From: a virus
Length of the DNA stretch: 64,000 nt
Strand: one strand, 5' to 3'
IMG/VR virus record: IMGVR_UViG_3300045988_129289
Both the position numbers and the translations under genes were made by a program. The notes under the pieces are model-generated. The model searched no databases. It worked only from the letters and a program-made list of their open reading frames with translations, and was not told where the DNA came from. This document shows positions 2-44,988 of this stretch, in pieces. How positions within the stretch are numbered: position 1 is the stretch's first letter; every line of letters starts with the position of its first letter.

Positions 2-1123
2 GATGCTAAAGAGCATGGAGCGCCAAAGAATGGATTGTGGGTATCAGAGAAAAAAGATATTGGGTTTATGAATGATAGACCAATATTAATATAGCTTCAA
101 TAGATTCTTAAGAAACCAATGGTATAGATTGGAGATATCCCTGCCCAGGGTAAAAATAAACTGCGCAACCATATACTTAGAGAAGCTGAATAGTCTGGAG
201 CAGATGCAGTTAAGTTTTAGGGAATTAAGGATAATAAAACTTCTAACCAGAATGTTACATTTATCTTTGATCCTGTTGCTTCTACCACAATTCCCCCGAA
301 AGAAATGAGAGCATTTAAGGAATAGATAACTAAGCTAACACCATAGTAGATAGGATAGGAAGCTAAGGAGGGTGTTAGAGATGTAATGATGTGGTATAGA
401 AGTCCACAGTGGGAAACTAGGGCGGTTTCACGCGGATTGACATAGGATGAAATAAAAGCCTTTCAGGACTTACAAGGAAAAGTTTTGTCTTAGAAACTCC
501 CTATGGATAATAGATTTGGACCGGTAAACATTATAGTAGAAGATATGGGTAAAGGTGTTTAGGGATACTCCCAATTCTTGCCCAAGAGTATACACACTAA
601 TCAATATCCATCTGAACATTTTGTAGCTATATCTAACTAGGCTTCTCATCCTTACTATACAGCAGTACATGAAGGAATGCATCATGGTACTTTTAATATT
701 GGTTCGACTGGGTGGACTGCACCTCAAATGACTTTATCTCCAATTGAATAGAGTGCCTTAGACAAAGTACTTAGGAATGCCGAAGCTCTTAATGCTAGAC
801 TAGAAATAGATCCTAATAAGTTTACTACTTTAATGAATAAACTACAAACTAAATATGGAATGTCTGAAGTGGAAGCTAGACATTGGATCGGGGATAGAGT
901 AAAGTATTGGCAGACTCCTCAAGAGTCAAGAGCCAGAGCAGGTGCGGTAAATTAGTACAAAAGAAATCACCCAAATGCATCTGAGGAAGAACTTACTCAA
1001 ATAGATAATGCTAGATAGATATTTACTAATGAATCTCTTAATAACTTATATGGAAAAACTATAGCCTTAGGAGCCCCAGTAGTAGGAGCATTGGCTTCCA
1101 ATCAACTAGGAAATGGAGAATGA
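2..1123 (+). CDS. 3' part of a large virion-associated protein with HExxH metallopeptidase motif; TAG-recoded (gene starts upstream of window)
   Basis: frame 2 open from window start to TGA at 1121 when TAG is sense; >20 in-frame TAG, no TAA/TGA; HEGMHH encoded at 668-685. Confidence 0.6.
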
Positions 1124-1405
1124 CTTCTCATCACTTATTAGAGATAACACCTATACGTTTGATTGCATTAAAATAATATTTGCACATAATACTTATTATA
1201 GTGAAAAAGTTATTACTAATAATTTTAAACAAGCTTTGATTCTCTTTAAAGCTTGTCCATGTTTGTTGCCCTCTTAGTATGCTTGCTTTTTCAAAGATGG
1301 CAAAGAAATAGCTCGGTGTACTATAGATTGGACTAATAAAGATGTAAAAGAATATTTAGATAATATTCCATATAAAATTGAGATTAATTTAAATGATTTA
1401 ATATA

Positions 1406-2392
1406 ATGGCTGAATTATTTACAACATTTGAATCAGTATCTCCACCAGATATAGTTACCCCAGATGTGCAATAGAATTACCAGGAAATATAGTTAATGTA
1501 GTAGCCTACTTAGGAAGTAGAAGACTCGAATATAGACTGGAGTTTCCTAGATGTACCTGAATAGGACATTCAGGAACCTACTTTTAATTATACTCCTTCT
1601 AAATCTGAGAATACCTCTTCTGCAGCTCAGAAAGTAATTAACTAGGCTAGATAGTTCTTAGGTGGAAAGTATAGTTGGGGAGGTTCTAGTCCAAGTTCTG
1701 GATTTGATTGTAGTGGACTTATAAAATATGTCTTTAATAGTGTAGGAATTAATCTTCCTAGGACTGCAGCTTAGCAGGGAAAAGTTGGACAAGAAATTAA
1801 TCTATAGTAGGCATAGCCTGGAGATGTAATCTGGTTTGGAAGTAAGAATAGTCCTAGTGGTTAGCATATAGGACTTATAAGTAGAATAGATAATGGATAG
1901 ATATATATTATAGATGCAGCTGGAAAGAAATTAGGAATAGTTGAAAGACTACTTCCGAATCTAAAAATTAAAAGTGTTAGAAGAATCCTAGGAACTATAA
2001 ACGATAGTCAATTTAATCAATACGCTTTAAACTTCTTTAAAAATAAAGGATTATCAGATGCTTAGGCTAGAGGAATAGTAGGAAATCTAATGTAGGAAAG
2101 CAGGGGAAAGCACACTGCAATAAATAAATCTAGTAAAGCCTTTGGGTTGGCACAATGGTTAGGTCCTCGTAAATAGAGGCTCATTCAAAAGTATGGAATG
2201 AATCCCACTGTATCATAGCAGTTAGAATTTATATGGGAAGAATTAAATTCTACAGAAAGTAAAGCTTTTTAGAAACTACTTAACACTAATACTATTTCTG
2301 ACGCCACTAAAGTATTTGCAAAGCACTTTGAGAGAGCTGGTAATAATGAGATGAATATGAATAAACGAATTAAATTCGCATATTAGACGTGA
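1406..2392 (+). CDS. peptidoglycan hydrolase: NlpC/P60 (C40) peptidase domain + lysozyme-like domain; TAG-recoded
   Basis: ATG 1406 to TGA 2390; translation with TAG=Q gives GFDCSGL...PGDVIWF...H(I)GL (NlpC/P60 Cys-His) then GNLMQESRG...AFGLAQW lysozyme-like motif; TAG aligns to conserved Q after LPRTAA. Confidence 0.7.
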
Positions 2393-2426
2393 GAATACCA
2401 TTATAACAATTAAAATTTTGTACAAT

Positions 2427-2876
2427 ATGTAGTTAGTTCCAAAAAGACAAATTGGAGGGAATCTTTATAAGATTGATAACACTATGCCCCAAATAACTCA
2501 AAGATATGTAGCTCTACTAAATAAAGGTATCCCAGCTTAGGCTGCTTTTGATACAGCCCATTTATCTCTAATAGAGGATGGAAGGCCTAATAAATTTTAT
2601 TCATTTGGTAAAAGAGCAACCAACTTGCAGGATTGGACTAAGAATGCATCGGATTCTTTGACTGTTGGGCGATATAAAAATTTATAGAATGTACAGAACT
2701 TTAATCAATTTAAGTAGAAATTAAAATAGAAAAGGTATAATAACAGACCTGCATTCTATAATATAGAAATGAACCGAGGAAGAAATAAAGATAAATAGAT
2801 TATTAATTAGTGGAATAAAGAATAGGGATTAAATCCAATAGCACAGATATATAATTATAATATTAATTAGGTATAA
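2427..2876 (+). CDS. hypothetical late protein, TAG-recoded
   Basis: open frame with ~14 in-frame TAG only, ends TAA 2874. Confidence 0.4.
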
Positions 2877-2901
2877 GAGCTATAATTATTCTTATAATAT
2901 T

Positions 2902-3123
2902 ATGAAAGAATTTCTTAGGTTGATGATTACTTCACATTCTGGCATTAGTAGCAAAAGAGTCTGTGGAGTAATTGGATTCCTTATTATTATTTTCGTATTA
3001 GTCTATTGTACAGTATCTTCTATTCAAGCCCCTCTAATGATAGAGCCTTTTATATATGCAGTATGTTTATTACTAGGAATAGATTCAGTAACTGGAATTT
3101 GGAAAGGTAAAATGAATGATTAA
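2902..3123 (+). CDS. small two-TM membrane protein, holin-like
   Basis: ORF track 73 aa, two hydrophobic helices, positioned between muralytic enzyme and next late gene; no TAG inside. Confidence 0.45.
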   Translation: MKEFLRLMITSHSGISSKRVCGVIGFLIIIFVLVYCTVSSIQAPLMIEPFIYAVCLLLGIDSVTGIWKGKMND

Positions 3124-3997
3124 GTTTTAGAGAGGTGGCATTGCAGTGTAGGATAATACTAGGGTTGTTAGAAAACAACCTCTAGCTTTTCGACTTACTA
3201 AAGAACAGTAGGCTAGAATTAAGTAGAGAAAATTATAGGAAGCTGCTAGAAGAAATCAAGCAGTAATCTATGATGCAGACAAAGCTAAATACTATTAGAA
3301 TATGTAGAACTTCTATAATAATAACTTCTTTGGATATGGAGTGTTTGGAAAGCAAACTCATTATGACCCTTCTAAAGAAGAGGATTAGAAGAAAATATAG
3401 TCTAATTTTAATTATGCTAAAGATAATGTAAAGAACATAGGAACTTCCCTTATAACTGTAGGACCTGCAAGTTCTTTTAAAGGTGTTTTGCCTTCTGTTT
3501 CCAGAAGAGTTACAGTAGGTAAGTTATCCGCCTTAACTCCTTATAAAATAGGATAGGGTTCAGAAGCCCTTGTAATAAGAAATTCTCCTACTACGGTAGG
3601 AAAGATAACTTAGGTTGGAAGTGGTGAAATGTTGAAAAGGAATGCAATTCCAAATTCCCTTCCTCTAAAGTTTGTGGGATATGTAAGAGATGGATCTAAA
3701 AGATTTCCAACTTTCATTTAGAAGAAAGTAAAAGTCCTTAGTGAAAAGACTTTTCCAAAGTATGTTGGTAAACTGGATAAAGCTATGTAGAAGAGTGGTT
3801 TTAGAAAAGTCAATGATCCAAATGTACAGTATAGAGCATATACCAATGGTACCGTAGTAGTTGATGATGTATCTCCTGGAAATGTAGGATTAACTTTCTT
3901 TAAAAAGCCTAAACTATTGGATTTTAATCTTCAAACTGTCCCAAGTTGGACTAGTTAGGGATTTACTCTTAAAAATGGAGGTAAATTTAAATCTTAA
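3116..3997 (+). CDS. hypothetical late protein, TAG-recoded
   Basis: ATG 3116 (overlaps holin-like stop), frame 2 open to TAA 3995 with ~15 in-frame TAG (checked at 3209, 3224, 3956). Confidence 0.5.
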
Positions 3998-4075: not shown

Positions 4076-4516
4076 ATGGATAAAACTATTAATTTTAACG
4101 AACTTCCAGATCTTACGAATATATTAGGTTTATGTATTCCAGACGGAACTGTAGAGACATTTGAAAGTGATGATTTAAAATGTCATTTGGAAAAAGATAA
4201 CGGTCATCTTAAAATAGAGATTGAAGCTAATATCCCTGAACAAGACGGAGAATTTGATGATTCTGCCACTAAAGAAATTGTTGAGGAATATAAAGAGGGA
4301 ATTAAGGCTCTTGATGATGATTTATTCGTAGAAATAGTCGACGAACTTAAATCTAAATTGGATTTAACTAGATTTAATGAGCTTCTTGATTTAGAAAGCT
4401 TTGATGAAGACCAAGCACAAGAAGTGGAAAAAATGATTGATATTTCTACAGATATTATTTGTTTGCATCTTCAGCATAAAATTCAAGGTATGGTTGAACT
4501 TTATGAAAGGTTTTAA
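4076..4516 (+). CDS. acidic hypothetical protein
   Basis: ORF track 146 aa, D/E rich. Confidence 0.55.
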   Translation: MDKTINFNELPDLTNILGLCIPDGTVETFESDDLKCHLEKDNGHLKIEIEANIPEQDGEFDDSATKEIVEEYKEGIKALDDDLFVEIVDELKSKLDLTRFNELLDLESFDEDQAQEVEKMIDISTDIICLHLQHKIQGMVELYERF

Positions 4517-4555
4517 TTTTAAGGTTGGCTACTCCTTTTAAAAAGTAGCACTTAT

Positions 4556-4630
4556 TGCCCCATGGTGTAATGGTTAGCACAGCGGTCTCTAAAACCGCAC
4601 GTTTCAGTTCGAATCTGAATGGGGCGACCA
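4556..4630 (+). tRNA. amber suppressor tRNA, anticodon CUA (decodes UAG), Gln-like; CCA encoded
   Basis: cloverleaf: acceptor TGCCCCA/TGGGGCG (U1-G72), D GTGT-AATGGTTA-GCAC, anticodon stem GCGGT/ACCGC loop CTCTAAA (CTA at 4589-4591), T arm TTCAG-TTCGAAT-CTGAA, A73, CCA 4628-4630. Confidence 0.85.
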
Positions 4631-4646
4631 GTTAAAAATATGTATT

Positions 4647-4910
4647 ATGAGAAGTGAATTAATGAAATTGATTAAGTCAGGTAGATTTCCAAATGAAAAG
4701 AATAGAGTTTGGACTATGTGTCAAATTGCACTGCATATGGCTACCCTAGCTGCTGATGAAGCAGAGAAACTAAAACTAACAGATGAACAATTCTATATTA
4801 ATTTTGAAGATGCACTTAATATTTTATCTGTTAGAGATCATTCTGGCAATCCAGAACAAGTTAAAGAATTTAAGGAAACAATTGAATCATTTGAAGCTGA
4901 TCCAGAGTAA
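4647..4910 (+). CDS. hypothetical protein
   Basis: ORF track 87 aa. Confidence 0.5.
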   Translation: MRSELMKLIKSGRFPNEKNRVWTMCQIALHMATLAADEAEKLKLTDEQFYINFEDALNILSVRDHSGNPEQVKEFKETIESFEADPE

Positions 4911-9209: not shown

Positions 9210-9464
9210 ATGTTAAAGAATTTTAAAGCTATTATCACTACAAACAAAGATGCACAGGTTGGTCAGAATCAGCAGAAGGCTGTTGTAAATCTCCCATTTG
9301 AATTGGAGCTTACAATTGACAAGAACAACCAGATTCATGACATCCAGCCCAGAACTTTCCGTGGCGTGGATTTATTCTCCAAGTATCACGGTCGCACTAT
9401 GGATTGGTGCTCAGACTTAGTAGAGGAGATGCGTGGACTTTACAAGGAGAATATCAATGGCTAG
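9210..9464 (+). CDS. hypothetical protein
   Basis: ORF track 84 aa. Confidence 0.45.
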   Translation: MLKNFKAIITTNKDAQVGQNQQKAVVNLPFELELTIDKNNQIHDIQPRTFRGVDLFSKYHGRTMDWCSDLVEEMRGLYKENING

Positions 9465-27335: not shown

Positions 27336-28682
27336 ATGTGTGGAATATTTGGTATTGTTACAAAGAGCACACGGTCTTTTGACTTTCCAACTTTCTGTAC
27401 ATTAGGTATCGCTAATGACAGTAGAGGAGGTGACTCTTGTGGATATTTTATTGATGGACACTACGAGTATGGAGCGAAAGGAAATGATAAGTGGTTTCAG
27501 TTCTTTTTCCAAGACAATAAGTTCCTTAATGAACTTAAAATGAGTTCAGTAGCTTTTGGTCATTGTAGAAAAGCATCTGTCGGAATCATTGACGAGACGA
27601 CTGCTCAGCCAGTGGTACTTACTGATGCTAATGGAAAGGTAGAATACGTTCTTATGCATAATGGAACTATCTATAATTATGAGGAGTTAGCTAATAAATA
27701 CATACCAGACATTGACATTACTGGTATGACTGATTCTCAAGTAATGGCTAGAATTTTCTATCGTTCTGGATACAAGGCACTTAGTGAGTACAACGGCGGA
27801 GCAGTGTTTGCAATTGCAGATTACCGTGGTGGAAAACCAAAGGTGTTGCTCTTTAAAGGAGCCTCTAAGAAAGACAAGTGGGACAAGAAGGAAACTGATG
27901 AACGCCCATTGTACTTCTGTGTTGATCCTGTAAAGGGAGAGTTAATCTTCTCTTCTATCGCTTCCTATTTGATGTCCCTTAGACATAAGCTCACAACCTG
28001 GATTTTAAATCCAAATTGTCTCTATGAGTTTAATGGTAGAGACCTAATTGCTGTCGAGGAAGTTTCTAGAGCTAATGCTTACCAAAGGAAGGAAACCATA
28101 TATGTAACTCCATCTAAATATGGTGGAAAATATTGGGGAGAATTTGGGCTGGAGGAAAGTGATGGCAGTCTTTATGACGATTTCATTTCAACTAATCAAG
28201 TAGATAATACTTATCATGGAAAGGGCAAAAAGCTTCAAGGACGAGTGCTACTTAATAAGTATGGAATGATGCTGGATGAAGCTCCTAAAAAGGCAACATA
28301 TAAGGAGATATTCTTTTGGGATGGAGTTGCTCTTAAGAATGTTGCATGCTTTCGATTTCTTACAGTCCTTAAGAAGGACAGTAAGCTCGAAGATAAAGAG
28401 TTTAATAAGAAGTTTAAGAACCTTATAAGGTACTTAAGTGTTGATGGTGTATATCATGAGAAGGATGTATGGTACAGAGCTACCTCTCCAACCAAGAGGA
28501 TTCCATTTACAGGAATACTGAACATGATTACATCAACTTCTTCTACAGAATTTTTTGCTGGAAGCAGAAGAACTACTAAATACGGTAGGACTTCTGATGA
28601 GGCATTTAGTTCTCTAGAGGAAGCTAAATTGGATGTTAATTTCAAAACAATTAAAGAAGAATGCAAGTCTTTGATGAAATAA
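27336..28682 (+). CDS. class II (Ntn) glutamine amidotransferase domain protein
   Basis: N-terminal MCGIFGI (Cys2 nucleophile as in PurF/AsnB/GlmS); 448 aa. Confidence 0.65.
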   Translation: MCGIFGIVTKSTRSFDFPTFCTLGIANDSRGGDSCGYFIDGHYEYGAKGNDKWFQFFFQDNKFLNELKMSSVAFGHCRKASVGIIDETTAQPVVLTDANGKVEYVLMHNGTIYNYEELANKYIPDIDITGMTDSQVMARIFYRSGYKALSEYNGGAVFAIADYRGGKPKVLLFKGASKKDKWDKKETDERPLYFCVDPVKGELIFSSIASYLMSLRHKLTTWILNPNCLYEFNGRDLIAVEEVSRANAYQRKETIYVTPSKYGGKYWGEFGLEESDGSLYDDFISTNQVDNTYHGKGKKLQGRVLLNKYGMMLDEAPKKATYKEIFFWDGVALKNVACFRFLTVLKKDSKLEDKEFNKKFKNLIRYLSVDGVYHEKDVWYRATSPTKRIPFTGILNMITSTSSTEFFAGSRRTTKYGRTSDEAFSSLEEAKLDVNFKTIKEECKSLMK

Positions 28683-29893
28683 CTAAAAGATGGGTGAGCT
28701 CTCGAAATTGTGCGAGGATTGTCATCCAACAACTTCCGGAACAAGTTATCTTCGGATATACTAGTAAGCCTGATAGAGTTGTTAGAGTCCTTATAACTAC
28801 TTCTAATGGATTTAATAACTACTTTGAAACGGATTTAAATCTATATAAGGGGAAACTCTTGTATAGTAGGAGAAATGGAATATACTTTTCTCCTATCAAT
28901 CACGATGAGGATTTTATACTCGCAGAACAACTCGTAAAGGGTCTCGGAGGTTTTCCCTACATCCTTACTAGAAGATATGAAGCTGTAGAGAATTTCGATG
29001 CTTTTAAGGGAAAGCAAGAAATTAAAGACCAGGAAACTTTGTATCCCTTAGCAAAATATTTAAAGTATACTTTTGGACTGGAGTTTGAAACATCTCAAGG
29101 ATATGTGCCTGAGGACGTATGTTATCGAGATGGATTAATCCCATTAAGGGATGGATCCATTACTGGACCAGAGTATTCTACCGTTGTATTGAAGGGAGGA
29201 GAAGGACTTTCTCTTCTTCATCAGCAAGTAGAGACGCTCAAAGAGTATACTAACTTTAATAAGGAATGCTCTCTACATGTTCATCTAGGAGGTTACCCTC
29301 TTAAGCCTGATACTATCTACAATCTTTATCTTGTATGTAGAACTATTGAATCTGAGCTAGAAAATATACTTCCTGCTTTGACTTTCAATAGTGCTAGATA
29401 TAAGGATAATGGTAAAGACTATTGTAAAAAGCTTGCTTTGTATAGTAGTTTTGAAGATATGTACTCGCATTTAGTAGGAAGGCAATTCTTCGGAAGTTTT
29501 ACCCAAGCTCATCCTGATGATAGGGAACGAAAAAGAAAGTGGAATATACCAACCCGTTATTATTGGTGTAACTTCATTAATGCTCTTTGCTATCAGGTAA
29601 ATAAAACCATTGAGTTCAGATTTCTTCGTCCAACCTATAGCTTTAAAAAGATCCTCCTATGGCTTTACATATTCAACGGCATTTTAAGATATGCCGAGGA
29701 GTACTATGTGCCGGGGAGTCGTGTTAATCTAGCTAGGATTATGAATAATTGCTATCCTTCTGATTTGGCAAAAGAACTTTGCCTTGGTATAAAGAAGCTT
29801 TGGGCACTTAGTGTAAATCAACGTGAAAACGGAGATCCTATTGGAGCTAATGTTTGGATGGAGGAAGAATTGTTTAACAGCTTAAAGATTTAA
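28661..29893 (+). CDS. GS-like carboxylate-amine ligase (Amidoligase_2-like) paralog 2
   Basis: GLEFETSQG, GPEYS, CSLHVHLG motifs parallel those of 26542-27333. Confidence 0.5.
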   Translation: MQVFDEITKRWVSSRNCARIVIQQLPEQVIFGYTSKPDRVVRVLITTSNGFNNYFETDLNLYKGKLLYSRRNGIYFSPINHDEDFILAEQLVKGLGGFPYILTRRYEAVENFDAFKGKQEIKDQETLYPLAKYLKYTFGLEFETSQGYVPEDVCYRDGLIPLRDGSITGPEYSTVVLKGGEGLSLLHQQVETLKEYTNFNKECSLHVHLGGYPLKPDTIYNLYLVCRTIESELENILPALTFNSARYKDNGKDYCKKLALYSSFEDMYSHLVGRQFFGSFTQAHPDDRERKRKWNIPTRYYWCNFINALCYQVNKTIEFRFLRPTYSFKKILLWLYIFNGILRYAEEYYVPGSRVNLARIMNNCYPSDLAKELCLGIKKLWALSVNQRENGDPIGANVWMEEELFNSLKI

Positions 29894-29899
29894 CAAAGT

Positions 29900-30481
29900 A
29901 TGGCAAAACAGGTATTAGAAATTGAAGTTCCAGATGGTAAAAAAGCTGTTTGGAAGGATGGTCATGTTGTCTTCGAAGATGTAGATACTATGGAAAGTAT
30001 CAAGACTATCGAGGACGCTGCTCAATTTCTTGCGGACAAGAGGATCTGTGAGGATATTCTGGACTCACTGTCTAGACTTCCTAAGGACTCATTTGAGTGG
30101 AAGATAGCTGCTTACAGAGCAGTAGTCGCAGCTGTAACCTATAATGAACAGAGGCATCTTACCACTGGAGAACGTTGGTTTCCTACTATTGAGTTCTGTC
30201 GACCTGGAAAGCTTAAGAATTGTTGCGGTGACATCGTTGTAGGACGAATCAAATCAGAAGGAGAAGAGTTCAATGTCGTGGGCGGTGACGCTGCTGACGG
30301 CACGGCTGCGGGTCTCGGTCTCTTCTACTCGCTTTGCGGCGTGTCTAACTCCTGGACGAATTTCGGCTTCCGGTCGGTTGGTTCAAAGAAAGCCGCCCTG
30401 TACATTTCTAAGCAATTTGGAAGACTTCTGTTTGAGGTTAGTTATGGTGGTACAAACTGTGATTGGAGATGGATAGCATAG
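29900..30481 (+). CDS. hypothetical protein
   Basis: ORF track 193 aa; ends TAG followed by TAA two codons later. Confidence 0.5.
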   Translation: MAKQVLEIEVPDGKKAVWKDGHVVFEDVDTMESIKTIEDAAQFLADKRICEDILDSLSRLPKDSFEWKIAAYRAVVAAVTYNEQRHLTTGERWFPTIEFCRPGKLKNCCGDIVVGRIKSEGEEFNVVGGDAADGTAAGLGLFYSLCGVSNSWTNFGFRSVGSKKAALYISKQFGRLLFEVSYGGTNCDWRWIA

Positions 30482-31097: not shown

Positions 31098-32906
31098 ATG
31101 TTAACAGAAAGTTTAATTATTGCAGGCGCAGTAGTTGTGCTTGTAATCTTGACCCTCATCGGTCTCATGTCACGTTATCGTCGTTGTGCAAGTGATGAAA
31201 TCTTGGTAGTCTTTGGTAAGACTGGCAAGAAAGTTGGAATCAATCCAGCAACCGGCAAGAAGGAAACAACAATTCTTCCTTCTAAGATCATCCATGGCGG
31301 AGGTACCTTTGTATTCCCTGTAATCCAGGATTGGAAGAAGATGTCTCTGAAACCTATCCAGATTCAGACAGAGGTAGAGGGTGTGTCAAGTCAGATGATT
31401 AAGGTCAAGATTCCGGTTACCTTGACTACTGGAATTGGTACAACTGATGTACTCATGCAAAATGCTGCAAGTCGTTTCCTGACTGCTAAACCTGATGAGA
31501 TTTCTGCTCAAATTACCGATATTCTTATTGGTGAAATGCGTGCTTTGATGGCTACTATGACCATTGAAGAGATCAATGCTGACCGAATCAAGTTCCTTGG
31601 TAATGCTAAGGAGGATATCGAGACTGAGTTGAACAAGGTAGGTTTCAGTATTATTAACATTAACAATGCTGATATTACTGATGATGCTGACTATATCAAG
31701 AATCTCGGTAAGAAGGCAGCTACCAAGGCAAAGGCTCAGGCTGAGGCAGACATCGCTGAGGAGGAAAAGAAGGGTGACATTCAGATTGCTGAAACCAATA
31801 AGGAGAAAGCAATTGCCGTAGCTGCTGCAGAGAAGGATCAAGCTACTCAGGTAGCTCAGACTAAGCAGGAGCAGGAAGTAAAGGTTGCCGAGATCGAGAA
31901 GAACAAGGCAATTAGTCTTGCAGAGGCTGATAAGACTAAGGAGTCTGAGGTTGCTAATCAGCAGGCTGATAAGGAAGCTGCTACCGCTGCTGCACAGGCT
32001 CGTTCAGCTGCCGCTGTAGCAAAGTCTGAAGCAGATGCTCTTGCTGCACAGGCAGAGGCAGAGGCTGAGAAGAATATTCGTATGGCTAAGGCTGAACAGC
32101 AGCAGGAAGCCGAAACCAGAAAGGCTACTAATGAGCAGGAAGCTAAGGTAGCTGAGTATGATGCTGAAAAGCGTAAGCGTACAGCTGAGGCTAATAAGCA
32201 GGCAGGCGTAGCTGAGCAGACAGCAACTATCGAGGTTTCTAAGGCACAGGCTGAGGCTGCTAAGGCACAGGCTGAGGCAGTTCGCGTTGAGGGTGTATCT
32301 AAGGCTGAAGCTGAAGTGGCAATTGCTAAGAAGAATGCTGAAGCTAAGGAGGCACAGTTGAACGCTGAGTCCATTGTTCCTGCTCAGAAGAAGAAGGAAG
32401 CTGTAGTTATTGAGGCTGAGGCTGAGAAGCAGAAGAAGATTGTTGAGGCACAAGCTGAGGCTGAAGCAATTAAGCAGAAAGCTTTGGCAGAGGCTCAGGC
32501 AATCCAGGCTAAGGCAGAAGCTGAGGCAGAGGGTAACAAGAAGAAACTTCTTGCTGAGGCAGAAGGTAAGCGTGCCTCTTTGATGGCTGAGGCTGATAAG
32601 GTTCAGGCTATCGAGATGGCTCCGGCACTTGCAATTGAGAAGATGATTGAGACAGGTATGACTCCGGAGATGATTGTTCAGTACAAGACTGTTGATCAGC
32701 TTAAGGGTATCGCCGAAGCTCAGGCTGAGGTTTATGAGCATATCCATCTTGGTGAGGTTACTGTTTATGGTAACGAGAACACTGCTGGTAACTTCATGGC
32801 TTCAATGGCTGAGAATCTCAATCCAGCATTTGAACTTCTCAAGTCTATTCCTTTCAAGAAGACTCTCAATGCTATCGCAGGCAAGGACGAAGTCAAGAAG
32901 GATTAA
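31098..32906 (+). CDS. flotillin-like SPFH/band-7 protein with long Ala/Glu-rich coiled coil
   Basis: ORF track 602 aa; N-terminal TM, SPFH-like region, ~250 aa of AEAEA/KAQAEA repeats as in bacterial FloT/YqiK. Confidence 0.7.
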   Translation: MLTESLIIAGAVVVLVILTLIGLMSRYRRCASDEILVVFGKTGKKVGINPATGKKETTILPSKIIHGGGTFVFPVIQDWKKMSLKPIQIQTEVEGVSSQMIKVKIPVTLTTGIGTTDVLMQNAASRFLTAKPDEISAQITDILIGEMRALMATMTIEEINADRIKFLGNAKEDIETELNKVGFSIININNADITDDADYIKNLGKKAATKAKAQAEADIAEEEKKGDIQIAETNKEKAIAVAAAEKDQATQVAQTKQEQEVKVAEIEKNKAISLAEADKTKESEVANQQADKEAATAAAQARSAAAVAKSEADALAAQAEAEAEKNIRMAKAEQQQEAETRKATNEQEAKVAEYDAEKRKRTAEANKQAGVAEQTATIEVSKAQAEAAKAQAEAVRVEGVSKAEAEVAIAKKNAEAKEAQLNAESIVPAQKKKEAVVIEAEAEKQKKIVEAQAEAEAIKQKALAEAQAIQAKAEAEAEGNKKKLLAEAEGKRASLMAEADKVQAIEMAPALAIEKMIETGMTPEMIVQYKTVDQLKGIAEAQAEVYEHIHLGEVTVYGNENTAGNFMASMAENLNPAFELLKSIPFKKTLNAIAGKDEVKKD

Positions 32907-33006: not shown

Positions 33007-33090
33007 GGAGGGATAGCACGTAATTGGAAGCGTCACAGTCTTCTAAACTGTTGCCATATGGCCTTTAGGGTTCGAATCCCTGTCCCTTCA
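33007..33090 (+). tRNA. tRNA with anticodon UCU (Arg AGA) but class II-like 14-nt extra arm and A73
   Basis: acceptor GGAGGGA/TCCCTTC, anticodon stem ACAGT/ACTGT loop CTTCTAA, extra arm TGCCATATGGCCTT (GCCAT/ATGGC hairpin), T arm TAGGG-TTCGAAT-CCCTG. Confidence 0.6.
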
Positions 33091-33155
33091 CATTGTTATT
33101 AATTTTTGATGGGCATTCTTCCCTTGTATGTTTAAAAAGAAATGATTTATGTATT

Positions 33156-35543: not shown

Positions 35544-35643
35544 AAATGAAAAGATTTATAATGTTTTTGCCTTGAAATGGGTACTCTCGTCTTTTCGGTT
35601 ATTTCACTGTGTTATATATTTTAATTAATTTAGGAAAAATTTT

Positions 35644-36645
35644 ATGAAGAAATTTATTTTCATCATGAGTTTGCTGTTCACTCTGTGTAGTTTTACCTAT
35701 GCGCAAACAGCGTATGAAGAATCTAAAATCCTTGATAACACTTCTATTAGTGTTGTAGGTGGAGTAACTACTCCTCTGGACTTTAACTCAGTATTTCCTG
35801 TAAATGGAGTTGCTGGTATTAAGTTGCAGAAGAACCTTACTCCTGTATTTGGGTTTAACGTTGAAGGACTTGCCTCCTTTGGCGATAATCACTATGGTAG
35901 TGCTTCTACTGTAGTAAGGTCTATTAATACTGGATTGAATGGAGTTATTAACTTCTCTAACCTGCTGTGTGGATATAATGGAACCCCTCGTAAGTTCGAA
36001 GTAAGTACTGAGACTGGTATTGGCTGGATGCATAGTTGGACGGGACACTGTAACTATCTTACATCTAAAACTGGAATGGTATTATCATTCAATCTAGGTA
36101 AGGAGAGAGCTCATTCAATCATAGTTAATCCTGCAGTATACTGGAATCTGAATAGGACAGATCATGTAGAGTTCAATAAAAATTATGCTCAGCTTGGTGT
36201 CTTGATTGGATGGGTATACCACTTTAAGACTTCTAATGGTACAAGAAGTTTTAAGACGTATGATATTACATCAATGAACAACGAAATTAATTCTCTCAAG
36301 AAGGATTTGGCAAAGAAACCTACAGAAATTGTAAAGGAGGTCGTTAAGACCGAAGTTGTTACTAATACGATTGGTAACACAGTGATTTTCTTTGCACAAA
36401 ATTCTGCAAAACTTACTGGAACCGCAATGTCTGAATTATCTAAGATTCCATCTGGTTCTAAGGTAAGCATTATTGGTTCTGCATCTCCAGAAGGTTCCTC
36501 TAATTACAATCGGAAGTTGTCAGAGAAACGTGCAGAAGCTGTTTCCAAATTCTTAACCGAAAATGGTGTAGTTGTAGAGAATTGTATTGGAACTGGTGTT
36601 ACTGACACTACTAGTGGTCGTGTAGCAATAGTTACTATTAAGTAA
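35644..36645 (+). CDS. OmpA-family outer-membrane protein (signal peptide, beta-barrel region, OmpA C-terminal domain)
   Basis: MKKFIFIMSLLFTLCSFTYAQ; C-terminal VIFFAQNSAKLT...IIGSASPEGSSNYNRKLSEKRAEAV. Confidence 0.65.
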   Translation: MKKFIFIMSLLFTLCSFTYAQTAYEESKILDNTSISVVGGVTTPLDFNSVFPVNGVAGIKLQKNLTPVFGFNVEGLASFGDNHYGSASTVVRSINTGLNGVINFSNLLCGYNGTPRKFEVSTETGIGWMHSWTGHCNYLTSKTGMVLSFNLGKERAHSIIVNPAVYWNLNRTDHVEFNKNYAQLGVLIGWVYHFKTSNGTRSFKTYDITSMNNEINSLKKDLAKKPTEIVKEVVKTEVVTNTIGNTVIFFAQNSAKLTGTAMSELSKIPSGSKVSIIGSASPEGSSNYNRKLSEKRAEAVSKFLTENGVVVENCIGTGVTDTTSGRVAIVTIK

Positions 36646-36824: not shown

Positions 36825-36915
36825 TACCTCCTTATATCAGTGGTAGAAGTTTAGCAAGGTCTATATTGCATAGATAGTAGTGAGACTGTCAGTGGTTCGA
36901 ATCCACTAGGAGGTA
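36825..36915 (+). tRNA. tRNA-like element (~91 nt) with ambiguous central region
   Basis: acceptor TACCTCC/GGAGGTA perfect, T arm AGTGG-TTCGAAT-CCACT, but D and anticodon arms cannot be assigned canonically. Confidence 0.3.
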
Positions 36916-36952
36916 CTACCTGTTCCTGTAAACATAAAAAAAAAAGAAGAAA

Positions 36953-38227
36953 ATGACTGATTTTAATATGAGTAAATTGTGGCTCGGTAAAGATGGATAT
37001 TACCGAGATGTAAACGGCAACAAGATTGCCTAGAAAGGGTAGCCCATTTCTGGTGCTGCTTGGAGATATTTAGCAGGAAAATATGGAAGGGAAGTTGCCA
37101 ATAGAACCTCAATGAATACTAGAAATGGAAACATATTCTAGAATGGACGTTGGCGTTTTAATGATGTCAAATCTTCTAAGCAAGGGAAAACTGCTACATG
37201 GGATGAAGCAGCTTCTAGAATTGAGGAGAATGCTAAGGCCGCTGGAGCTAGAAAAACAGCAACTGGCTATACACAGAGAAACCCTTTCAATAATAAAGAT
37301 ACCTATCTAAATCAAGATACAAAGAATAAAGCCATGAAGGCTTATAGAGCACGACAGAAATCATAGACTTCTGCTGAGAATCCTGATGAATTTAGTTGGA
37401 GTGATCTAAATCCTTTCAAGAAAGGTGCTTGGGAAGGCAACTGGGATAGTGCAGCAAAAAACTTCATTGATTCCTTTAAATCAATTCCCGATATTTGGAG
37501 AAAGGGGTATGCTAGAAGAGGCGAAATGTATAACAATGTTCCTCAGAGTGTATTTGAACCAAAACGAAACACAGGTGTTTTGGCACGATTCAATGATACT
37601 CTTGGAGATATTTCTAGAACTGGAAATGCTGTTCTGGGAGGAACTATTGGAACTGCCTTGCAGCTCTTACTACCATAGAAGGTTGAGAGAGAAGCTAGCA
37701 ATCTAGGACAATATCTAGATCTAGGTAAAGATGTTAACTCTGTCAGAAGTTATTTAACTCCAGGAGAAGAAGGAATATTGCCAGATGATCCTAGGAATAA
37801 GGGATTTGCTGATTAGAATTTTGCCTGGACTGGGCTAGACGAATAGTAGAGAAGAAATATTAACGATGATGCCAACTTTGCTATGGCTATCCTTGGAACT
37901 AAAGGTATGAAGGGTGGAGTCTCTAGACTTAAGACTGGAGTCTCTGGAATGGTAAAAGATGGAGTAGGTACTACGCTAAAGAATAATTGGAAACCTATTA
38001 TGTCTCATACACCAGGTGCCGCTAACCTTTATTAGGCTGGAAGTGCACTTAATTCTGTAAGAAGGGCATTAGCCCCTAAGAGACTAGGAGGAGCAGAAGG
38101 AATTGGCAGTAGATCTGCAAATGTAGGAAAAGCTGCATTTCAGGGGCTTATGGCTTCAGATCCTACTATGGCACTATACCCTTATGCACATAGCAGTTAT
38201 ATGGTAAATTTATCTAATAATAATTAA
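36953..38227 (+). CDS. hypothetical virion protein, TAG-recoded
   Basis: ATG 36953, frame open to TAA 38225 with ~12 in-frame TAG. Confidence 0.55.
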
Positions 38228-38229
38228 AT

Positions 38230-39240
38230 ATGAGTATTAAAAAGAAGGCACAATATTTAGGTGAGGGAGTAAATTGGTTAAAAGGTCATGGTTAGATGAT
38301 ACCAGATTACTTCGGAAACCTGATGAGACGAATTGGAGGAGGTGAGAGAGCTGTAGTTAGAGCTAGGCAAGCTTCTCCAGAATTAATTGCATCTAGAAAT
38401 AGTTAGAGAGGGGCTGAAATGAGTCATAATCTTGCAGCTCAAAGATATAAAGAAGCTTAGCAAGCAGAAAGTAAATTATTAGACAATACTAAAAACTGGA
38501 AGTAGCCTAATAGTAAAAGAAACGTAAAGAGAGTAAATGATGCTATGCGAAAAACAGATGAAGCTGAGAGAAATGCAATAACTGCATCATAGAGAAGTAG
38601 AGAAGCCTAGGAAGCTTTCAATAATACTAAGAGACAGGTTACTAATGATGCCCTAAAACAAGTTAGGAATAAGGGTATTAAAAGAACTCTTAAAACCGCT
38701 GGACTTGTAGGTGGTCTTGGTACTGGAGCTTATCTAGTTATTCCGAGAAATTCTAAATCACCTAGTGCTGCAGAGGAGACTCCATAGCAATATATGTATA
38801 GTCCAAATAATGGTTGGCAGGAGTGGAATCAGGAAACTGGTTAGTATGAAAATCAACAGCAAGGATTCGGAATAGATAGGTATGGAAATACTAACTACTA
38901 CGATGGAACAAATTGGCTAACTCCTGATCAGTATCTACAAGGCAGTAATGGTTACATATATAATAAACAAACTGGACAAATTATAGGTACGGCTGATGAC
39001 ACTATGGAAGCGTATAATAATGGCTATGACAATGTGTTTGATTATCGCGCTGCTAAAGCTGGTTACAATAGCCCAGAAGCTGTCAAGCAACTTCAAGAGA
39101 AACTTGGAATAAATGCTGATGGTAAGTGGGGACAGCAAACTTAGGATGCTTTCAATAAGACTGTTTCAAATTGGGCATAGCAATATGATCCTAACAGTTT
39201 ATTCTCTATATACTAGAGAAAGATGCAATTCGGATACTAA
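38230..39240 (+). CDS. hypothetical virion protein with C-terminal PG_binding_1-like peptidoglycan-binding repeat, TAG-recoded
   Basis: ATG 38230 to TAA 39238; ~17 in-frame TAG; GYNSPEAVKQLQEKLGINADGKWGQQTQDAFNK. Confidence 0.55.
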
Positions 39241-39253
39241 TGAAAAAAAAAAA

Positions 39254-40456
39254 ATGACACAAATAAATAAAGCACAGAGAGGAGCAATTCTCTAGTTTGG
39301 TAAGTTAGTAAATAAGGCTAAGTTAGCTTCAAATAGATTAGGGAGGATCTTTACGGGTGAAGCTGCAGCTGAAAAGAAATTAAACAAGCTTGCAAAGTAG
39401 AAAATATTGTAGTAGACAGGTAGTTGGAGACCTACATAGAAGATGAGAGAAATCAACTTAGAAGGGAAGAAGCAGTCCATCAGGGACGCAAAAGCCATGA
39501 GGAGTGCAGCTTCTAAGGCTGAACTCAAATGGATGTAGGAAAACTCTGATAAAGCTACTAAGGTTTACAAGAGTGGCGCTAGAGAATTTGGAGGGGATGC
39601 TAATAGACTCACTTTATAGAAAGTAAGGTAGGATGCAATGAAACCCTTCCTTGCGGATGAGGCTAAAAGAATACGTAGAAATAGGGCTGTAGCAACTGTC
39701 TTGCCTGTAGGTTTAGGCATTCCTGCCTACAACATACTAACTGGGAAAATATATGATAATGTATTTCCCTATGGATATTAGGATAAAAAGGCAAGTGATA
39801 AAGACAAGGGAGAAAGTTGGGTTGCGCGCATAAAAAAGTTTGGACCAGCTGCCTTTGGTATAAAATCAGATGCTAGAAAGCATTTTGACTAGATTGCTGC
39901 AGCAGATTTATCTGATCTAAAATAGAGGAAAGAAGCTGAAAGAATTTACTAGGGAGACTCCATTTTGCAGTACCCAATGGGTGGTGCTTCTTTGGAATAT
40001 GTATAGAATCGATTTAGAAATAGAACCGATTTCAATGACTTATATCTAGGAAGACCGCAAACATATAATACACTGGTTCCAAATACTGAGTATTAGTCAG
40101 TAAACTCTCATGAAAACCCTAAGATAGTTACTTATACTTTTGCAGACCCAATAATTAGGAATATGTTAAGAAGTCAAGGAAGGGATTTCAATCTCAAATA
40201 GAATGATATTGACCCTGATAAAGGCTATGGAGCAAGAGCAGTATCTGACCATAATGGGATTTTCGGAGATTTCGGAATAGTTAAAAATTAGTAGAATGGA
40301 GCTGGTAGATATAAAGAAGATTGGGATTTTCCATTATCTGGATTAACTCATAAGCTGGGATTAACTAGCTAGGTTATAATAGCTGATACTATACCTGGTA
40401 ATTAGCCAAGATAGAGTTATAGATTTGGAGAACATCACAATAGATCATAGATGTAA
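39254..40456 (+). CDS. hypothetical virion protein, TAG-recoded
   Basis: ATG 39254 to TAA 40454; >20 in-frame TAG (checked at 39293, 40448). Confidence 0.55.
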
Positions 40457-40471
40457 AAAAAAAAAATTAAT

Positions 40472-41272
40472 ATGAAGAAGATAATTAGATCAATTGGAAT
40501 GGCATTTATAGTATATTTGTCAATTTCCTTTATAGGGGCTTGCTTTGAGTTGTCTCTATTTATTTTTAGAGAGACCTTCTTAGATGAATTAATCTATTCA
40601 TTTGGAATCTCTATTGGACTACCAGATCTTATAGGGGAATATATTACTCCTAAATCAATTCCATGGGTAGAGGATATTGAAACTTCTATAGTATTTGGTA
40701 TTCCTTTGATAGGATCTCTGATATATCTTATTATGTCTTTGAGAAGAAAAAGTTTATTGATATTGCTATGTCTATTTGCATTACCAATATCAGCAAAGGA
40801 ACCTATTAAAGCGATCCCAAAGGGTGGTAGATATGCTATCCTTGTGGATTTCTCAAAGCCCTCTGGAGAAGATAGATTTAAGATATATGATTGTAAATCC
40901 CATTGTATCATATATTCTAGCGTGGTTCAGCATGGCAATGGGGGAGGAAGTACGAAGGAGAAGCCAGTATTTAGTAATAGGATAGGAAGTAACTGTTCTA
41001 GTCTCGGTTTATATAAAATCACTGGTTTTGGAAGAATGAATAGCTTTCCTATTAACTGCTTTAGACTTAAAGGGCTAAGCAGCACTAATTCTAATGCAGA
41101 AAAGAGAGGCATTGTTATTCATCCCACACTTAGTAGTTCTCTTCCATTTAAAATGCGTTACCTCCCATTGAGTGATGAAAGTCATGGTTGTTTTGGAGTA
41201 AGCTTTGAAACAATGAGGGTAATACGTAAATTGTATGGTAAAGGCGTAATATATTTATATGCTTTCCATTAA
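40472..41272 (+). CDS. L,D-transpeptidase-like (YkuD-type) protein with N-terminal TM helices
   Basis: ORF track 266 aa; GIVIHP...SHGCFGVS resembles YkuD catalytic HG...SHGC motif. Confidence 0.5.
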   Translation: MKKIIRSIGMAFIVYLSISFIGACFELSLFIFRETFLDELIYSFGISIGLPDLIGEYITPKSIPWVEDIETSIVFGIPLIGSLIYLIMSLRRKSLLILLCLFALPISAKEPIKAIPKGGRYAILVDFSKPSGEDRFKIYDCKSHCIIYSSVVQHGNGGGSTKEKPVFSNRIGSNCSSLGLYKITGFGRMNSFPINCFRLKGLSSTNSNAEKRGIVIHPTLSSSLPFKMRYLPLSDESHGCFGVSFETMRVIRKLYGKGVIYLYAFH

Positions 41273-42436: not shown

Positions 42437-42508
42437 ACACCTATAGGTTAATGGTTAGACTAGCGGTCTCCAAAATCGCAGATGGGAGTTCGATTCTCTC
42501 TGGGTGTG
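42437..42508 (+). tRNA. tRNA-Trp (anticodon CCA)
   Basis: acceptor ACACCTA/TGGGTGT, anticodon stem GCGGT/ATCGC loop CTCCAAA, T arm GGGAG-TTCGATT-CTCTC; anticodon arm nearly identical to suppressor at 4556. Confidence 0.8.
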
Positions 42509-42526
42509 CTAATTAAGTTTAGCAAT

Positions 42527-43306: not shown

Positions 43307-43437
43307 GTATGGGATTTTTAATTGTATTAGGAATATTTATGGCTTTAGCCCTATTTTCAATTCTGACGACAAAGTATTCCTCTATAGAGGTAGACCCTAA
43401 TGAGGAAATTTAGTAATAACATAAATTTAATAGATTA

Positions 43438-44988
43438 ATGGAAATTATTAATGCAACTGATGGCTATAAACTTGGCCATCATCGTATGTACCCAGAGGGT
43501 ACACAAATGGTTTATAGTAACTGGACTCCAAGAAGTTGCCGTTACTTTCCAGAAGCCACAGAAGGTTCTGTAGTATTTGGTATTCAGTACTTTGTAAAGA
43601 AGTATCTAATTGAGGAGTTTGGTAAGTGGTTTGCTCTTCCTAAGGAAGAGGCTATTAAACAGTTTGCTTATCGTGTAGGTAACTTTGTAGACCTTAATCA
43701 GGTTGGAACAAAGCATATTGAGGAACTTTATGATTTAGGATATCTTCCTATTGAAATTAAAGCTCTTCCTGAGGGTTCTATCTGTCCTATAAGGGTACCT
43801 ATGATGACTATTAAGAATACTCTTCCGGACTTCTTCTGGTTGACTAACTATTTGGAGACTCTGATTAGCTGTACTCTATGGCTTCCTTGTACTTCTGCAA
43901 CAAGTGCTCGTCTTTATAAGAAGAGACTTATGGAGCATGCTATAAAGACTAGATTCCCAGAAGATGTAAATCTAGGGTTCTCTTGTCATGATTTTTCAAT
44001 GAGAGGTATGGCTGGACTTGATGCTGCTATCATCTCCGGTATGGCTCACATGACTTCATTCTGTGGCAGTGAGACAATTCCTGCTATTGCGGCAATAGAG
44101 CATTATTACAATGCAGATGTTACTAAAGAACTCGTAGCTGCAACTGTTCCAGCAACTGAGCACTCTGTGATGTGCGCAGGGGGTGAGGATGATGAAATTG
44201 AGACATATCGTCGCCTTATTAATGAACTATATCCAACGGGTATTATTTCAATAGTATCTGATACTTGGGATTTTTGGCAGGTAATTGAGAAGTTCTTACC
44301 TAAGCTTAAAACAGACATTATGAAGCGTAATGGTCGAGTAGTAATTCGTCCTGATAGTGGTGACCCAGTTGATATTATTTGTGGTCTTCGTACAAATCCT
44401 CATTACCACACTGCCATGAAGGAAGGTAAATACTACTGTGATTTTGACCCATTTATGGATGATGATGAAAGTCATTATGTAGAAGTATCTGAAGGTCAGT
44501 ACTATGGAGCATATTATATGCTAGGTAAAATCTTTGGATGGAATACTACAGTAAATGATTATCGTTATCCAAGTACCAAGGTTGGATTGCTCTATGGAGA
44601 TTCTATTACTCTGGAGCGTCAGCGTGATATCTATGCTCGATTGGAGAGTGCTCATATGGCAGCTTGTAATCTTGTTCTTGGTATTGGATCTTACACTTAC
44701 CAATTTAAATCTCGTGATTCTTTGGGATTTGCAATTAAAGCAACTGCTTGTGTAATTAATGGAGAACTTAAAGAAATCTTTAAGCATCCAAAGACTGATG
44801 ATGGAACAAAGAACTCCCTTAAAGGTCTTATAAGAGTTGAGGAGGAAAATGGTAAGTATGTTGCTTATGATCAGCAAGATGCAGCTCATGAAATGGCAGG
44901 CTGTTTGGAGCCAGTCTTTGTAAACGGAAAATTGGTAAGAGATACTAGTCTTTCTGAAATTCGTGAACGTATAAGCTCAACATTATGA
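43438..44988 (+). CDS. nadV: nicotinamide phosphoribosyltransferase (NAMPT/NadV)
   Basis: 516 aa; N-terminal NATDGYKLGHHRMYPEGTQMVYSNWTPRS typical of NAMPT. Confidence 0.75.
   Translation: MEIINATDGYKLGHHRMYPEGTQMVYSNWTPRSCRYFPEATEGSVVFGIQYFVKKYLIEEFGKWFALPKEEAIKQFAYRVGNFVDLNQVGTKHIEELYDLGYLPIEIKALPEGSICPIRVPMMTIKNTLPDFFWLTNYLETLISCTLWLPCTSATSARLYKKRLMEHAIKTRFPEDVNLGFSCHDFSMRGMAGLDAAIISGMAHMTSFCGSETIPAIAAIEHYYNADVTKELVAATVPATEHSVMCAGGEDDEIETYRRLINELYPTGIISIVSDTWDFWQVIEKFLPKLKTDIMKRNGRVVIRPDSGDPVDIICGLRTNPHYHTAMKEGKYYCDFDPFMDDDESHYVEVSEGQYYGAYYMLGKIFGWNTTVNDYRYPSTKVGLLYGDSITLERQRDIYARLESAHMAACNLVLGIGSYTYQFKSRDSLGFAIKATACVINGELKEIFKHPKTDDGTKNSLKGLIRVEEENGKYVAYDQQDAAHEMAGCLEPVFVNGKLVRDTSLSEIRERISSTL

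Follow-up and report, generated by a model that had tools for sequence, protein, structure and literature searches.

The window, by which we mean the whole 64,000-nucleotide stretch of IMG/VR virus record IMGVR_UViG_3300045988_129289 that was analysed, carries a 75-nucleotide tRNA gene with the anticodon CTA at exactly positions 4556–4630 (+), as called by ARAGORN. The original prediction had read a canonical CUA cloverleaf here, and both structure-aware predictors bear this out: ARAGORN accepts the gene with a CUA anticodon, and the Rfam tRNA model RF00005 matches it with 59.1 bits (E = 3e-10; gathering score 29). The cloverleaf is also the minimum-free-energy fold, and the 3′ CCA is encoded in the gene. 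Parsing of the arms gives an acceptor stem UGCCCCA/UGGGGCG with pairs U1·G72, G2-C71 and C3-G70, a D arm GUGU-AAUGGUUA-GCAC with an 8-nucleotide loop, an anticodon arm GCGGU-CUCUAAA-ACCGC, a 4-nucleotide variable loop (ACGU), a T arm UUCAG-UUCGAAU-CUGAA and the discriminator A73. This candidate amber suppressor, called the type A allele below, was characterized by ARAGORN, Rfam, folding, arm parsing, covariation and bacterial isotype matches.

When the window tRNA is aligned with its alleles, with related suppressors from phages and with the Gln tRNAs of phages and bacteria, 99.1% of cells form standard pairs and 17 of the 21 cloverleaf pairs have changes on both sides. Neither value was reached in any of 500 shuffles, and slid controls pair in 38–51%. 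Among type A alleles, the T stem carries a compensatory change (UUCAG/CUGAA versus CUCAG/CUGAG), and pair 6–67 occurs as C-G, U·G or U-A. These data confirm that the tRNA gene is real and under tRNA-like structural constraint.

ARAGORN labels the gene ‘Pyl’ because of its CUA anticodon and nothing else, and the anticodon is likewise all that speaks for a pyrrolysine tRNA. Such tRNAs have a short D loop, a 3-nucleotide variable loop, a 6-base-pair anticodon stem and no G18G19 or T-psi-C signature, whereas the window tRNA has G18G19 in its 8-nucleotide D loop, the T-loop sequence TTCGAAT, a 5-base-pair anticodon stem and a 4-nucleotide variable loop. In addition, no Pyl-related gene occurs among the window ORFs scanned, and TAG aligns with glutamine (see below). 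Pyrrolysine identity is therefore vanishingly improbable, being effectively ruled out by the structure of the tRNA.

A conserved hairpin (GCTACTCCTTTTAAAAAGTAGC; 4528–4549, +) ends 6 nucleotides before the tRNA and forms the upstream edge of a replaceable cassette. It is present as a single copy in the window, where chance predicts none, and it lies upstream of a CUA tRNA in 17 of the 18 other contigs that have it. It may terminate the upstream ORF or may signal processing or expression. On the upstream side, the suppressor slot is adjoined by a conserved ORF of 146 amino acids (4076–4516, +) that has no in-frame TAG. Searches of PHROGs and Pfam assigned no function to the ORFs on either side of the tRNA, and a profile search of IMG/VR for the 146-amino-acid neighbour, whose query was too degenerate, yielded just one extra locus.

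TAG recoding in a distant crAss-like phage

Two blocks of plus-strand ORFs are rich in in-frame TAG codons. With TAG read as sense, the ORFs of the first, late block (2–3997) contain 16, 7, 20, 9 and 14 of these codons, and all end in TAA or TGA. They include the ORFs at 2–1123 (16 TAGs), 1406–2392 (20 TAGs, with NlpC/P60 and phage tail lysozyme domains), 2361–2876 (9 TAGs) and 3116–3997 (14 TAGs). The second block (36938–40456) comprises three ORFs with 9, 11 and 21 in-frame TAGs, one of which has a weak match to a peptidoglycan-binding domain. When TAG is read as sense in the same way, nearly all other long ORFs of the window lack it. Codon counts are 91 TAG, 41 CAA and 26 CAG for six recoded genes, and 0, 178 and 207, respectively, for 62 standard-code ORFs. 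The tRNA sits at the edge of the recoded block, as had been proposed: the block ends at 3997 and is followed by the TAG-free ORF 4076–4516 and then by the tRNA. A CUA tRNA and many in-frame TAGs thus reside in the same genome, which upholds the reading of the gene as an amber suppressor.

TAG serves as the stop codon of nine of the 62 standard-code ORFs (for example, 29900–30481, 9210–9464, 18126–18398 and 56032–57042), and in four of these nine a TAA or TGA follows 1–3 codons later, as if to provide backup termination under suppression. No release-factor or synthetase gene was found among the window ORFs scanned. ARAGORN also calls a 91-nucleotide ‘tRNA-?’ at 36826–36916 (+), 20 nucleotides before the second recoded block, with a two-base anticodon and an 8-nucleotide loop containing CTA. 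It was considered as a second suppressor and rejected because Rfam finds nothing there even at E = 10; it is unlikely to be a functional tRNA.

A tRNA of this kind could instead act mainly on the host, either by sabotage through TAG readthrough or by replacing tRNAs that defences destroy. Such a role is suggested for Zeta crAss-like phages reported to carry CUA tRNAs without recoding (PMC12386605), and it would accord with the ability of phage tRNAs to counter tRNA-targeting defences (PMC10264068, PMC11555353) and with the rapid turnover of tRNA alleles in this phage family. However, the roughly 90 in-frame TAGs make six recoded genes unmakeable without suppression. A host-directed function is thus very unlikely to be the main one and would be at most an additional effect.

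Relatives of the window are contigs of 155–177 kb from human gut metagenomes, and its first 12 kb have no megablast match among GenBank phages. In the close relative L004, the terminase large subunit (TerL) is split in two ORFs (4245–4847 and 2244–3968, minus strand), whose nearest named relatives are Crassvirales TerLs at 28–29% identity; the hosts listed for these are Bacteroidota. Judged by these similarities, the source is a distant crAss-like gut phage of about 175 kb, and its hosts are probably Bacteroidota that use the standard code. Large Zeta crAss-like phages span 145–192 kb, contain many introns and tRNAs and recode TAG or TGA in late genes (PMC7886860, PMC12386605); as far as this published description goes, the window phage seems to match them.

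The window has 22 tRNA genes, namely 20 found by ARAGORN (leaving aside the call at 36826–36916), the suppressor, and a tRNA at 18111–18183 (+) that ARAGORN missed and Rfam alone detects (61.7 bits), whose loop CUUGUAA indicates Thr(UGU). Two genes from an ARAGORN run without introns, tRNA-Pro(UGG) at 20324–20413 (+) and tRNA-Arg(UCU) at 33007–33091 (+), have variable regions of 20 and 14 nucleotides. These isotypes normally have short variable loops, and an intron or other insertion is possible at both genes. In L004, ARAGORN calls a ‘tRNA-Stop’ at 18238–18309 with the anticodon UUA and the loop UAUUAUA, resembling an ochre suppressor, which is absent from the window. An abiF RNA motif (14958–14995, +; Rfam 50 bits, gathering score 37) lies inside the tRNA array. 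A group I intron (22095–22346, +; Rfam 87 bits) adjoins an ORF with a glucosaminidase domain (21218–21748, +) and is overlapped by a 213-amino-acid ORF with a zinc-finger match (22273–22914, −). Further genes encode NAMPT (43420–44988), an SPFH protein (31098–32906), an OmpA-domain protein (35629–36645) and YkuD_2 (40457–41272). Pfam matches in a gene cluster at 25908–29893 (+) are to Peptidase C26/GATase class I, phiEco32-like COOH-NH2 ligase, GATase_6/7 and Amidoligase_2; a part for these amidotransferase and amidoligase genes in tRNA-dependent Gln formation was discarded, as the matches include no GatCAB family.

Glutamine at TAG and a Gln-type tRNA body

Full-length homologues in the protein database are already translated with TAG as Q, and codons were therefore compared in the DNA of five relatives instead. 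All relatives in this comparison are themselves recoded, so the test is one of TAG against CAA/CAG columns. In the NlpC/P60 gene of six phages, the columns that hold TAG contain 166 other codons, among them 55 CAA and 13 CAG but no TGG or TAT, and the conserved columns with TAG contain solely TAG, CAA and CAG. Two window genes together provide 34 TAG columns, at which the non-TAG codons of relatives specify Q in 37 of 65 cases (~57%); eleven of these columns are all-Q and ten are all-TAG in the relatives. Codons for other amino acids that align with TAG specify polar residues at variable positions, and distant PDB homologues of the NlpC/P60 domain have E, K, S, M and Q at the TAG sites, a mixture that points to no single amino acid. 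Because two mutational steps separate CAA from TAG, the interchange of the two codons does not reflect mutational proximity. TAG is Gln in the recoded genes, in agreement with the earlier claim that it aligns with Gln, and the late genes must accordingly be translated with code 15. The same reassignment was demonstrated by proteomics in crAss-like phages (PMC9523058).

The tRNA could in principle be charged with some other residue, such as Trp, Tyr, Lys or Glu, with TAG then being that residue or ambiguous. CUA suppressors can be mischarged, Gln and Trp identities are known to be close in E. coli CUA and UCA suppressors, and at variable columns E, K, S and N are found opposite TAG as well. Nevertheless, conserved TAG columns exchange just with CAA and CAG, without TGG or TAT, and CAA dominates despite its mutational distance. 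The acceptor stem and A73 are of the Gln type, and 28 of 29 phage tRNA(CUA) examined cell-free in E. coli extract inserted Gln (PMC12636597). Charging with a residue other than Gln is thus a highly improbable alternative.

The body of the tRNA was compared with bacterial tRNAs by scanning its first 18 nucleotides (TGCCCYATGGTGTAAYGG) against one genome per bacterial or archaeal species. At least 120 loci were found, mostly in Bacteroidota (Flavobacteriales and Bacteroidales) and many in Phycisphaerales. ARAGORN called 96 tRNAs among the matches listed, of which 81 are Gln(UUG), 14 are Gln(CUG) and one, on a 101.5 kb contig binned with Segatella copri, is CUA; none has a non-Gln sense isotype. 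That this prefix finds just Gln tRNAs and one CUA tRNA among the matches listed agrees with the proposal that the body points to Gln charging. Parsable Gln tRNAs in the same set mostly have C3-G70 (90 of 92) and A73 (82 of 92). The window tRNA shares U1, G2-C71, C3-G70, A73 and the D arm GGUGUAAUGG-AGCAC with Bacteroidota tRNA-Gln, but has G72 for A72 and a D loop longer by one nucleotide. Its suppressor character comes from the loop CUCUAAA, which replaces the YUG anticodon and UUYUGRU loop of Bacteroidota tRNA-Gln. The acceptor stem, positions 8–9, D stem and A73 are Gln-type.

In E. coli, GlnRS identity is determined by a weak U1-A72 pair, G2-C71, G3-C70, G73, G10, U35, G36, A37 and U38. 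From this set the window tRNA has U1 (with a wobble partner), G2-C71, G10, U35 and A37, and lacks G3-C70 (C3-G70 in its place), G73 (A73), G36 and U38. The check for GlnRS identity elements that accompanied the original prediction therefore gives a divided answer, in which the E. coli set is incomplete and its Bacteroidota version, with C3-G70 and A73, is matched. With G3-C70 and G73 missing, and G36 and U38 necessarily changed, charging depends on the rules of the host GlnRS, which we infer from the tRNA-Gln genes of that clade alone. The 1–72 pair is U-A in 91 of 92 bacterial tRNA-Gln among the matches listed (L036–L155). In 53 unique Gln-bodied CUA suppressors from IMG/VR (L233 onward), it is U-A in 23, U·U in 11, U·G in eight and U·C in four. 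GlnRS needs to open this first pair, and its weakening in suppressors would fit that requirement.

Two sense tRNAs of the window serve as comparators for the origin of the suppressor. The tRNA-Gln(UUG) at 12573–12644 (+) has the loop UUUUGGU and a different acceptor stem (UGGGGCA). As had been noticed, it agrees with the suppressor at U1 and A73, in the GUGU strand of the D stem and in the T loop (UUCGAAU). The tRNA-Trp(CCA) at 42437–42509 (+) has A1-U72, G73 and the anticodon arm GCGGU-CUCCAAA-AUCGC. This arm had been described as differing from that of the suppressor by essentially one base; the near-match stands, but there are two differences, at positions 35 and 40. The nearest annotated phage tRNAs are listed as ‘tRNA-Gln’ in the crAss-like phages cr7_1 and cr124_1 but actually have CUA anticodons.

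These resemblances raise the question of a true chimera, in which the D loop and anticodon arm of a tRNA-Trp, with a C35U change, recombined into the acceptor and T body of a tRNA-Gln. The window Trp agrees with the suppressor at every position of the D loop (8/8), at every position in the 5′ strand of the anticodon stem (5/5) and at all but one position of the anticodon loop (6/7); the 3′ strand of the stem agrees at 4/5. The first three regions match the window Trp better than any of the 92 bacterial tRNA-Gln among the matches listed, a weak comparison given that the Gln sample was chosen by an acceptor/D-stem prefix and not by the central region. The window Trp is also the second-nearest non-suppressor tRNA (identity 0.65–0.67, versus 0.67–0.69 for phage Gln(UUG)). 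However, the C32/A37/A38 loop pattern is common to all window tRNAs that read UNN codons (Phe CUGAAAA, Tyr CUGUAAA, Cys CCGCAAA and Trp CUCCAAA), and differs from the bacterial Gln loops of the prefix matches listed (UUUUGGU, UUUUGAU and UUCUGGU). A Gln tRNA that becomes a UAG reader is thus expected to converge on CUCUAAA. Moreover, 20 of the 96 sampled Gln tRNAs among the matches listed have the same four stem pairs next to the loop (CGGU/ACCG), and the D loop and arm recur in Gln-bodied phage CUA suppressors on unrelated contigs (L164, L162 and L226); for their first 42 nucleotides, L164 and the L009 allele do not differ. Outside the D loop and anticodon arm, which are all that match Trp, the molecule does not look like an su7-type (Trp-derived) suppressor: agreement with the window Trp is 3/7 and 4/7 in the 5′ and 3′ acceptor strands, 3/8 in the D stem and 4/10 in the T stem, and A73 contrasts with the Trp G73.

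The Trp resemblance is real yet not diagnostic, and no feature requires an arm swap. The hybrid origin through C35U in a Trp anticodon arm, as first put forward, is not supported, since the body is Gln-type and the UNN loop frame, the stem and the D loop all occur elsewhere. We regard a chimera as very improbable, and descent from a Bacteroidota-type tRNA-Gln as the preferred reading.

The suppressor slot and a sister class with an extra arm

In about 20 related contigs the slot has a common order, with the 146-amino-acid ORF and the conserved hairpin preceding a CUA tRNA. At least six types of CUA tRNA, with a mutual identity of 50–71%, occupy it. The flanks are 91–97% identical across tRNA types, and their similarity does not track the type of tRNA. 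For example, the window (type A) is 97% identical upstream and 95% identical downstream to L011/L029 (type B), and 91% and 95.5% identical, respectively, to L004 (type C); between L007 (type D) and L013 (type A), the upstream identity is 97%. The alleles diverge from about 5 nucleotides before the tRNA, just past the hairpin, to 10–20 nucleotides after it. Slot loci fall in the range L004–L035 and include, besides the window (4528–4646), L004 13149–13222, L006 12765–12836, L007 12863–12941, L008 14246–14336 and L017 1947–2021.

Type A clusters with type B and with suppressors of crAss-like phages and Dulem virus, and an exact-core search finds it confined to this phage family within IMG/VR. 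Type C is about 78–80% identical to a Phass-1 suppressor, and BLAST searches of GenBank phages with types D, E and F returned no informative isotype. [quoted passage not shown] Other tRNA slots, compared between window positions 10016–14106 and L004, L007, L021 and L023, form a mosaic of same-anticodon alleles. Same-anticodon tRNAs there are mostly either 87–100% or 50–65% identical (for example, Gly, Glu, Asn, Ala and Met), and the Gln(UUG) alleles of close relatives are intermediate (73–76%).

A sister class of CUA suppressors has an additional arm that resembles a Gln anticodon arm. Its variable region of 20–21 nucleotides forms a 3-base-pair stem and a 7-nucleotide loop with CUG or UUG at loop positions 3–5. 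The type E allele L008 (14246–14336) and a second Phass-1 suppressor (L156 1279–1366) both have such a long variable region, in each case with CUCUGAA as its loop, and further arm-bearing loci, from IMG/VR, are L159, L161–L232, L241, L261, L286, L295 and L323. Scanning IMG/VR with the arm motif found 43 CUA tRNAs with the arm, on very different bodies. In a second IMG/VR scan, whose query combined a Gln-type D arm with a CUA loop and left out the arm motif, 10 of 114 tRNAs had a variable region of 20–21 nucleotides, and five of those ten arms lack the original motif (UGCUGAG, CUUUGAA, UUCUGCA, CCCUGAA and UUCUGAG). Twelve distinct arm cores have CUG (11) or UUG (1) at loop positions 3–5, with positions 4 and 5 invariant. 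Their outer stem pair covaries (GC 5, UA 4, AU 1, CG 1 and UG 1), although full pairing of the arm is partly by construction, as the cores were picked with three pairs required.

This pattern suggests that the extra arm may supply the C/U34-U35-G36 identity nucleotides for GlnRS that are lost from the CUA anticodon. We found no description of such an arm in the literature searched. The window tRNA, with its 4-nucleotide variable loop, does not have it, and the L009 allele, which is of the window's type, is identical to the arm-bearing L164 at 66 of 72 positions (~92%) when the arm is counted as an insertion. A tentative and rather doubtful extension is that the window tRNA came from a shared, fast-moving pool of suppressor cassettes and is an arm-less derivative with a weakened 1–72 pair, the arm of its sisters providing GlnRS identity. 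The resemblance of some slot alleles to suppressors of unrelated recoded phages (crAss-like Burzaovirus and Phass-1) and the endonuclease genes next to the slot in some genomes would accord with such a pool.

Proposed function and relation to known suppressors

We consider it probable, at roughly 85%, that the product of this gene is a working amber suppressor whose ancestor was a tRNA-Gln of the Bacteroidota type. In the mechanism we propose, the ~175 kb distant crAss-like human gut phage would transcribe the tRNA and host enzymes would mature it. The host GlnRS would then charge it with glutamine, presumably through the Gln-type acceptor stem and D arm, A73 and U35. Its CUA anticodon would compete with release factor 1 for UAG and decode it as Gln, permitting translation of the late genes for virion proteins and cell-wall hydrolases, which use TAG more often than any other Gln codon. 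Genes of the early and middle phases, having no internal TAG, would be translatable before the tRNA builds up, if this is the timing. The anticodon loop would have been remodelled from the Gln form UUYUGRU to CUCUAAA, the pattern of readers of codons starting with U, and an A72-to-G change would have given U1·G72; both changes may be functionally meaningful. Late-gene recoding with phage suppressor tRNAs is an established model (bioRxiv 10.1101/2021.08.26.457843).

On its own, the tRNA serves to confirm that the window comes from a TAG-to-Gln recoded crAss-like phage. It also suggests a route from a cellular tRNA-Gln to an amber suppressor, with a UNN-type loop and an altered 1–72 pair acquired and the clade-specific Gln body kept. 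The polymorphic slot and the extra-arm class could matter more than the window tRNA itself. If suppressor cassettes do swap between phages, then the code change is a mobile, exchangeable trait. Likewise, if GlnRS is truly recruited by the extra YUG hairpin, tRNA identity would be uncoupled from decoding in a novel manner, of interest for tRNA recognition and for the engineering of orthogonal suppressors.

The slot recalls the tRNA cluster of phage T4 with its homing endonuclease SegB (PMC2330249), in that some relatives likewise have GIY-YIG or HNH ORFs beside the suppressor. The analogy extends to a reassortment of tRNA alleles between near-identical relatives.

The E. coli suppressors supE, a tRNA-Gln(CUA), and su7, a tRNA-Trp(CUA), both insert Gln, and GlnRS recognizes U35 and a weak 1–72 pair. 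The window tRNA is like them in amber suppression with Gln insertion (predicted in the case of the window), in U35 and in its weak 1–72 pair. In contrast to supE and su7, it is not a single-mutation derivative, as positions 32, 37, 38 and 72 are also changed, and its body is of the Bacteroidota Gln type (C3-G70, A73), which is neither the E. coli Gln nor the Trp type.

The closest parallels are found in gut phages that use code 15 (TAG-to-Gln), namely the Burzaovirus phages cr7_1 and cr124_1 and Zeta phages, whose suppressors have a CUA anticodon, a Gln body and the same CUCUAAA loop. The window tRNA is 74–78% identical to the CUA tRNAs of cr7_1 and Dulem virus 42, differing from crAss-like CUA tRNAs in U1·G72 and the 8-nucleotide D loop. 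Its position also differs, as it follows the conserved hairpin and the 146-amino-acid ORF, whereas the crAss-like counterpart precedes a dUTPase gene. The window phage belongs to another lineage than the named crAss-like phages, the TerL of its relative being 28–29% identical to those of named Crassvirales. In code 15 crAss-like phages, recoding is limited to late, structural and lysis genes, and the same is seen in the window phage. CUA suppressor tRNAs of TAG-to-Gln phages are thus already known, and a Gln/Trp hybrid origin is not needed to account for this one.
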